From assembly GCF_003334255.1 (NCBI RefSeq), contig NZ_QOWU01000139.1: 2,234 nucleotides of DNA; one strand, 5' to 3'. This stretch comes from Escherichia coli (lineage in GTDB: Bacteria > Pseudomonadota > Gammaproteobacteria > Enterobacterales > Enterobacteriaceae). A program made the position numbers and the translations under genes. Below are positions 659 through 1,126 of this stretch, one piece after another (position 1 is the first letter of the stretch; every line of letters begins with the position of its first letter). Under the pieces are notes generated by a model. It saw only the letters and a program-made list of their open reading frames with translations, did not search any database and was not told the origin of the DNA.

Positions 659-1126
659 ATGCCTGTTGCTATGGAGCAAGCAGACAAGAAGATTTTTTTT
701 CATCTGTGGTACAGCTATTGGCTGGAAGAGATGGTTTTCATACTCAGCAATAAAGCCGCTGCCATGTTGCGCGCCGGGGCGCTGATTGCTGCGGTATTGT
801 CCTTTCTTCTGGTTGGTTTTCCCGTCCTGATGAGCCTTTGGGGGCTGGCGTTTTTTGTTTTTTCCTGGTTTTGCAGCAAGTGTGAATTCGTCGCCGAACT
901 GGCGTGCTGGCAGAAACAGAGCTACCTTCGTCTGATTACGCAAAGGGATTTCATGAGCACTGAACGCCTGATTGAGCGCATTCTGTATCTGGAAGAAACG
1001 AACAGCGCATCCATGAAGGCGTTTGTCAGGCCCGCAAAAAACAAAGCGAGCGCATCTGTTGGTCTGTCTGCCAGCGAGCATTTGCGTTACTCCGAAAGGT
1101 TAATCTGCTGGTTGTGCGGCGTCTGA
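659..1126 (+). CDS. Hypothetical 155-aa membrane protein with two predicted transmembrane helices and a ~80-aa C-terminal domain carrying two CxxC motifs
   Basis: ATG at 659 follows GGAGG (648-652) at 6-nt spacing; the TTG at 653 used by the ORF track is less likely. Hydrophobic segments at about residues 34-58 and 61-73 (AGALIAAVLSFLLVGFPVL, LWGLAFFVFSWF). CSKC and CWLC motifs are present. Codon usage is enterobacterial-like with many CTG, GCG and GAA codons. Stop is TGA at 1124-1126. Confidence 0.65.
   Translation: MPVAMEQADKKIFFHLWYSYWLEEMVFILSNKAAAMLRAGALIAAVLSFLLVGFPVLMSLWGLAFFVFSWFCSKCEFVAELACWQKQSYLRLITQRDFMSTERLIERILYLEETNSASMKAFVRPAKNKASASVGLSASEHLRYSERLICWLCGV

Follow-up and report, generated by a model that had tools for sequence, protein, structure and literature searches.

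A 40-bp tail-to-tail overlap between a DUF4406 gene and a putative accessory gene embedded backwards in the early region of a P2-like Escherichia coli prophage

When two phage genes converge and overlap at their 3' ends with no terminator between them, does the arrangement act as a genetic switch or is it simply a consequence of how the genes came to lie side by side? The question is raised by a stretch of 2,234 nucleotides of Escherichia coli DNA (hereafter the window), in which a plus-strand gene coding for a predicted membrane protein and a minus-strand DUF4406 gene meet tail to tail. An earlier note on this DNA had proposed that read-through from either promoter would make the two transcription units mutually antagonistic, and that this could be a switch between prophage states. 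Much of its description stands: the 40-bp overlap is exact, according to both the list of open reading frames (ORFs) and the RefSeq annotation of two prophages; the gene labels are right, the DUF4406 gene being annotated as such and matching the corresponding PHROG families, and the plus-strand product, with its hydrophobic stretch, being modelled as a helical hairpin; and the surroundings are indeed a prophage.

More precisely, the prophage is P2-like (P88/Xuanwuvirus-like) and the window covers part of its early region; at 97.8-99.4% identity, this DNA recurs in two complete E. coli genomes. In two near-identical prophages, L001 (12659-13126 on the plus strand and 13087-13449 on the minus strand) and L002, the RefSeq annotation places the two genes with ends identical to those of the window ORFs. 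The plus strand of the prophage carries genes for an integrase and a C-type repressor. Its minus strand starts with cox, several small ORFs and genes for a 3'-5' exonuclease, a ParE-like protein and Dam, and continues with two small ORFs, the DUF4406 gene, a gene annotated as coding for a 'derepression protein', a small ORF, the replication endonuclease gene A and others. The window covers the part between Dam/DUF4406 and derepression/gene A of this P2-family prophage, and the membrane-protein gene, found between the DUF4406 and 'derepression protein' genes, is a lone backwards gene within the early gene string. The early lytic operon (minus strand) begins at cox, beside the C repressor gene and about 5 kb from the overlap, and the Dam gene and two small ORFs at 1440-2234 are upstream members of the operon to which the DUF4406 gene belongs. 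The slot holding the membrane-protein gene falls inside the integrase-to-GpA interval, a minor defence hotspot in P2-like phages (bioRxiv 10.64898/2026.02.27.708500). Features of the window, and of an additional small ORF found in related loci, are listed in Table 1.

Table 1. Coordinates of features in the window and of the proline-rich ORF in related loci
Feature	Position	Strand	Description	Basis
'Derepression protein' gene	51-272	-	73 aa, PHROG 3688	ORF list, annotation
C4-type antisense RNA	329-416	-	82.8 bits vs gathering score 45	Rfam RF01695
IsrK-like small RNA	452-526	-	64.3 bits vs gathering score 50	Rfam RF01394
Promoter-like site	533-562	-	TTGCCA-18-TACATT, positioned to start the IsrK-like RNA	Also present in P88
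Candidate sigma-70 promoter	570-597	+	TTGTGT (570-575), 16-nt spacer, TATAAT (592-597)	Sequence prediction
Ribosome-binding site	649-653	+	GGAGG, 5 nt before ATG 659	Direct reading of the sequence
Membrane-protein gene	659-1126	+	155 aa, predicted two-helix membrane hairpin, short helical C-terminal region	ORF list, RefSeq, PHROG 6315
Tail-to-tail overlap	1087-1126	both	40 bp; plus-gene codons Y144-V155 plus stop, last 13 codons of the minus gene
DUF4406 gene	1087-1449	-	120 aa	ORF list, RefSeq annotation, PHROG 355/5781
Stable hairpin	1151-1176	+	25 nt past the plus-gene stop codon	Folding; surrounding stretch z -2.1
Two small ORFs, overlapping ends	1440-1658 and 1655-1891	-		ORF list, prophage annotation
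Dam methylase gene, 3' part	1926-2234	-	Truncated by the window end	ORF list, prophage annotation
Proline-rich ORF	L006 2211-2294; L022 1965-2051; L026 3783-3986; L029 3911-3991
Proline-rich ORF	L032 3857-3982; L033 3861-3989; L035 374-499; L036 1211-1300

The overlap lies in a part of the DUF4406 gene that varies. The DUF4406 (PF14359) assignment combines the RefSeq annotation with matches to PHROG 355/5781 (E = 6e-39 and 5e-36), and these matches cover residues 1-90 only, which make up the recognisable domain; from about residue 104 to residue 120 comes a run-on tail that varies. Past residue 103 or so the tails of different variants are unrelated (...PGVDQTPHNQQINLSE, ...LLHKSKATQATE and ...LLRRKADAT), and the portion within the overlap, where the minus-strand codons read QTPHNQQINLSE plus stop, seems disposable judging from this variability. 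On the other strand, the conserved residues S145, L148 and L152 of the membrane protein fall inside the overlap. An ORF adjoining the membrane-protein gene of L008 (3442-3795) has a Dam-like N-terminus and a DUF4406 C-terminus, and is apparently a deletion fusion.

To compare junctions, overlaps and gaps were measured in 27 related loci. A 40-bp overlap is found in the window, L001, L002 and L007; thirteen other loci with a DUF4406 neighbour have a 27-bp overlap, and L006 has a 49-bp gap although its neighbour is also a DUF4406 gene. Where the neighbour is a different gene the two are separated by gaps of 65 bp (L011-14) or 39 bp (L022 and, likewise, L023-25), and in a Yersinia phage by 84 bp. 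Convergent orientation is kept in the relatives, with a spacing of -53, -40 or -27 bp or gaps of 2 to 407 bp, the tightest 3' spacings being those of L037 (2 bp) and L034 (12 bp). The exact 40-bp junction was recovered from 2 of 5426 complete E. coli genomes.

How the two overlap lengths arose can be read from close relatives. The membrane-protein genes of L008-L010 are 95-97% identical to that of the window, yet their overlap with the DUF4406 gene is 27 bp long, a difference due to a 1-nt indel that lies in the DUF4406 tail, close to the membrane-protein gene but outside it. In the 27-bp form the minus-strand stop codon, TAA, falls exactly opposite the TTA codon of Leu148, a residue that is invariant among the first five homologues aligned. 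The minus-strand frame of the window is shifted relative to this form, and translation therefore continues to the next TAA. The three possible minus-strand frames into the membrane-protein gene stop after 27, 40 or 101 nt, and two of these classes are observed. A run-on of 17-30 codons has a probability of 0.5-0.3 at a per-codon stop probability of 0.040; the length of the overlap is no more than chance would give. In phage P88, which lacks the membrane-protein gene, the minus-strand genes continue straight into the IsrK promoter. Past its conserved part, the DUF4406 frame of the window lacks a stop codon of its own and therefore runs into the antisense of the plus-strand gene. Because the tail is variable, its length is set by the position of an antisense stop codon and relatives differ, the overlap appears to be incidental: a run-on tail at a mosaic junction and a by-product of tight insertion. 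There may have been selection to pack the 3' ends tightly or to couple the genes by antisense, since a tail-to-tail overlap recurs in an unrelated lineage and the spacing is very tight in L037 and L034.

The plus-strand ORF (653/659..1126 in the ORF list, with an ATG at 659) is truly coding, because variable sites among six close relatives are in excess at the third codon position (13, 13 and 36 sites at positions 1, 2 and 3, respectively); a spurious ORF was rejected on this test. Homologues that are 25-38% identical retain an LW(Y/N)SYWLE motif along with other motifs, and a profile search gathered 189 representative clusters for the family; the window gene belongs to PHROG 6315 (function unknown). 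The product has a hydrophobic stretch of 41 residues (33-73) interrupted by G-F-P, and its AlphaFold model (mean pLDDT 75) has a long helical hairpin and, after it, four short helices; on both counts the label 'membrane protein' is reasonable. Searches of Pfam, NCBIfam and PADLOC-DB 2.0 gave no significant match (none at E <= 0.1 in PADLOC), nor did a search of PDB sequences, and Foldseek against AFDB50 returned nothing outside the protein's own family. A literature search with the protein accessions and PHROG 6315 found no mention of them. Membership of the SLATT 2TM effectors was considered but is not supported, a single one of 44 family members matching SLATT_4 (E = 0.067) and the window protein giving no match.

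The candidate promoter of this gene has a weak -35 hexamer (3/6 consensus matches) and is conserved, as TTGTGT-16-TAGAAT, among cassettes that have diverged to about 38% protein identity; overall, the cassettes occupying the same slot are only 25-38% identical. A search for LexA boxes, through which the 'derepression protein' gene or the membrane-protein gene could come under SOS control, gave 9 matches where 8.9 were expected by chance, none of them at a promoter. With a promoter of its own (at the level of sequence prediction) and a strong ribosome-binding site, the membrane-protein gene has the appearance of an autonomous accessory gene of the 'moron' type. Like moron loci, it is a single gene placed between conserved phage genes and antisense to lytic genes, and it is present in some syntenic phages and absent from another, P88. 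In their original definition, classical morons also carry their own factor-independent terminator. Here the window variant differs, having none, whereas L006 and L022 do have one.

Several lines of evidence agree with the earlier note that neither strand has a convincing intrinsic terminator between the two genes. A consensus scan gave no site from 847 to 1465 on either strand; a looser custom scan found only marginal hairpins (for example at 1112-1146, -9.4 kcal/mol, followed by GCUUUUACC); and the segments 1105-1160 (plus strand) and 1030-1100 (minus strand) fold no better than shuffled sequences (z of +0.93 and +0.53). On these folding results a bidirectional terminator hidden in the overlap was also rejected. 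A 75-nt composite structure (1076-1150) followed by UUUUACC was rejected as a terminator, being long and branched with a sub-region that folds like shuffled sequence. The hairpin located just past the plus-strand stop codon is followed by UGACACG, without a U tract, and is not a canonical terminator. With no terminator between the genes, RNA started on either side could thus run on into the neighbouring gene as antisense.

On the minus strand, a scan of 11.8 kb of the early region found a sole strong terminator, at the end of the IsrK-like RNA (a stem at 472-457 followed by seven T). As the early gene string has no convincing terminator before that point, there is none at the DUF4406 gene either, which fits a long early transcription unit passing through DUF4406. 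The gaps of L006 and L022 each contain a hairpin with a T-rich tail, on the plus strand only. The pattern in the family thus seems to be one of asymmetric termination at the convergent junction, where the accessory transcript would be stopped and the lytic strand allowed through; the window variant has either lost its plus-strand terminator or never had one. A five-pair G+C hairpin (CGCCG...CGGCG) at 618-635 on the minus strand, followed by CATTCCATTTTT, lies antisense to the 5' leader of the membrane-protein gene and just before the IsrK promoter; it may partly stop minus-strand read-through, but as a candidate it is weak.

Taken together, these observations make it probable that an accessory gene was inserted backwards between the DUF4406 gene and the block formed by IsrK/C4, the 'derepression protein' gene and gene A, with the overlap as a by-product and any transcriptional interference following from the state of the C/Cox switch. 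In a lysogen, the C repressor would keep the early promoter off and the membrane-protein gene would be transcribed from its own promoter, its RNA probably being ended by Rho or fading out inside the silent early genes. Upon induction, polymerases coming from the early promoter would cross the membrane-protein gene and its promoter head-on, and would dampen its expression by collision or promoter occlusion, both of which are established at the convergent promoters of phage 186 (PMC5001618). Such interference between convergent transcripts is plausible, and would act downstream of the C/Cox switch, about 5 kb away, without driving the prophage state. We infer the activity of the plus-strand promoter, the read-through and the interference from sequence features.

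The earlier note did not consider Rho-dependent termination, which is realistic here because both RNAs are untranslated past their stop codons and include segments rich in C and poor in G. The C/G ratio reaches 1.8 on the plus-strand RNA (1179-1282) and is 1.5-2.2 on the minus-strand RNA (852-515, with a peak of 2.2 at 696-619), and the latter RNA is untranslated for 815 nt before the next ORF. Rho could thus limit the read-through of both RNAs. Taken further, both RNAs might be ended by Rho within a few hundred nucleotides, so that the two units would be effectively independent and would make little antisense RNA; in that case the DUF4406 gene would be the last of the early operon and the IsrK promoter would serve gene A. 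Rho does suppress untranslated antisense transcription in E. coli, and an independent promoter-like site is found before IsrK. This promoter could be sufficient by itself to serve gene A, and for that reason the need for transcripts from the early promoter to cross the membrane-protein gene at all is open to doubt. However, a composition with C in excess of G is permissive rather than diagnostic, and the early genes of P88 abut the IsrK promoter without a spacer, suggesting continuous early transcription. We therefore regard complete insulation by Rho as possible but doubtful.

A stronger role for the junction is the one put forward by the earlier note, in which unterminated convergence would make expression of the early operon exclude that of the membrane-protein gene and vice versa, and so help to set the prophage state. 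The logic, in which transcripts reading through one unit are antisense to its neighbour, is that of the excludons described in Listeria, where long antisense transcripts link neighbouring genes of opposite function. What stands of this proposal is that the genes are convergent, overlapping and without an intrinsic terminator, and the convergent orientation is kept in all relatives and in other phage lineages. What is not supported is the switch. The overlap is variable or absent, and lies in a disposable DUF4406 tail; P88 does without the membrane-protein gene; and the terminator that some relatives have on the plus strand only would remove half of the antagonism. Any antagonism would in fact be one-sided, because the early operon starts at cox/C and should be off in the lysogen regardless of the membrane-protein gene. 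The early promoter is controlled by C/Cox from about 5 kb away, and a moderate promoter facing the operon would at most reduce the expression of its distal genes. Since the arrangement is both dispensable and variable, and since weak opposition over a distal segment is not enough to keep a strong early promoter off, a switch at the 3' overlap is unsupported and seems improbable; the recognisable regulators here are the C/Cox pair and the IsrK/C4 module (329-526). The window also differs from excludons in that its overlap is not conserved.

Interference between convergent promoters is nonetheless an established control device of the P2 family, as in phage 186 (PMC5001618), and this speaks for mutual exclusion. 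The switches of phage 186 (pR/pL) and P2 (Pe/Pc) share with the window an opposing transcription without a terminator, in which the lytic transcript can suppress the opposing one. In those switches, however, only tens of bases separate the facing promoters, it is the 5' ends that overlap and repressors control the pair. In the window the overlap is one of 3' ends, about 5 kb separate it from the early promoter, and the phage can do without the arrangement.

It is also conceivable, but very improbable, that the 3' extension of the plus-strand RNA is itself functional, the lysogen's RNA being antisense to the DUF4406, Dam and other early genes and blocking a related superinfecting phage. The window variant does lack a plus-strand terminator, and there is a precedent in prophage BTP1, whose antisense RNA STnc6030 excludes superinfecting BTP1 (PMC7067206); relatives of the window, on the other hand, end the plus-strand transcript right after the gene, and the ORF itself is under selection at the protein level. 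Both STnc6030 and the OOP RNA of lambda, which is directed against cII, are made by the lysogen and antisense to lytic genes, as the window RNA would be, but they are dedicated non-coding RNAs with defined ends, while the antisense RNA of the window would come from an mRNA whose 3' end is left unterminated. Finally, it is scarcely credible that the membrane-protein ORF is no gene and the overlap an annotation artefact: its product lacks a Pfam, NCBIfam or PADLOC match and the annotators of Yersinia phage vB_YenM_42.18 called the opposite strand, but the third-position excess, the motifs kept at 25-38% identity, the 189 clusters of the family, the GGAGG site and the conserved candidate promoter all argue for a gene, and the antisense frame is closed in the window.

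The IsrK-like and C4-type RNAs beside the membrane-protein gene also score above the Rfam gathering thresholds in P88, L006 and L023. In the prophage they are followed by the 'derepression protein' gene, then by a small ORF and by gene A. With tblastn against phage genomes, the 'derepression protein' was found only in P88-like phages and one Citrobacter phage, and its name therefore comes from annotation alone. The promoters of the membrane-protein gene and of IsrK stand back-to-back, with their -35 hexamers 7 bp apart (557-575), and could compete or be co-regulated.

In Gifsy-1, some transcripts of the isrK-orf45-anrP region pass the IsrK terminator and allow expression of the antirepressor (PMC4825925). 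The order seen in the window, namely a promoter, IsrK with a leaky terminator, a C4-type RNA and a small regulatory gene, is shared with the IsrK-orf45-AnrP region of Gifsy-1 and with the C4 operon of P1/P7. It differs in that the window module belongs to a P2-like phage and precedes the 73-aa 'derepression protein' and gene A. By analogy, then, the module looks like RNA control of the P1 immI or Gifsy-1 isrK type in a P2-family phage, and its presence before the derepression and replication genes of P88-like phages suggests RNA-based control of induction or replication.

The membrane-protein family is found well beyond this locus. A scan of one genome per species confirmed no relatives, while a scan of a viral collection returned 19 loci. 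In a 186-like prophage (L029, 4001-4646) the family gene is placed backwards between fil and the next early gene and shares 53 bp with the 3' end of the fil-like gene, an independent tail-to-tail case. Two prophage-like contexts with lambdoid marker genes have it backwards among small minus-strand genes; in a Mu-like phage it again lies backwards, flanked by the lysis genes and by a large ORF that precedes the portal gene, with 12 bp separating it from the convergent neighbour; on another contig it converges with a BstA-type gene, itself located two genes away from one for a CI repressor; and on further contigs it converges with unannotated genes. Co-directional placement was seen in only two of about eleven independent contexts. 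Across P2-like, 186-like, lambdoid and Mu-like phages, genes of this family of predicted two-helix membrane proteins of about 150 aa nearly always lie opposite to the lytic operon around them, with a 3' spacing that is short or nil. Antisense placement relative to lytic genes is characteristic of prophage accessory loci (PMC7067206).

In most lineages a proline-rich, charged ORF of 26-48 aa (e.g. MSDSDKFHVPRQPAPAPE... and MSDSDKFHVPRQPAPAPEKGQGWDDEED) lies directly before the family gene and is read in the same direction, which suggests a two-gene cassette made up of this ORF and the membrane-protein gene; the ORF is missing from the window and from L004-type cassettes. As for function, one member adjoins a BstA-type abortive-infection gene (KilA-N plus BstA_C) near a CI gene (L036, 1403-2981) and another adjoins Nmad2 and DpnII-MboI genes (L028, 342-1834); such neighbours provide a weak guilt-by-association with defence loci. 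The family is a reasonable candidate for an exclusion or defence function expressed in lysogens. A more specific proposal, tentative and in our view unlikely, is that its members are a new kind of prophage-encoded exclusion or abortive-infection effector, whose orientation would tie their expression to lysogeny: they would be on from their own promoter in the lysogen and turned off by head-on lytic transcription at induction, so as to spare their own phage.

Convergent genes that share a few dozen bases without a hairpin terminator are ordinary in compact, mosaic phage genomes, and the window is a fresh instance of a known arrangement, that of an antisense-embedded accessory gene with convergent, unterminated 3' ends. 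Of more interest than the overlap are two leads found beside it, the IsrK/C4 module and the backwards-embedded membrane-protein family, a recurrent and unannotated family that shows where genes have been inserted antisense into lytic operons in several types of phage. L001 has a second lone plus-strand gene (145 aa, 17103-17540) among the minus-strand early genes of the same prophage; it is convergent with cox across an 83-bp gap, with a terminator-like hairpin (17580-17613) on the plus strand only, and its start and that of the next minus-strand gene form a divergent 2-bp overlap.

Several database annotations in these regions are probably wrong. A 62-aa plus-strand 'hypothetical protein' is annotated exactly over the C4 and IsrK genes (331-519 in the window), and again in L002 (3331-3519), in L004 (1833-2021) and as gp13 of P88 (L027, 3632-3820); this ORF over small RNAs is probably a spurious call. 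In Yersinia phage vB_YenM_42.18 (L026), gp08 (3803-4468) is a 221-aa ORF annotated opposite the membrane-protein homologue (3992-4459, plus strand), and its annotated strand is probably the wrong one because the membrane-protein family is conserved.
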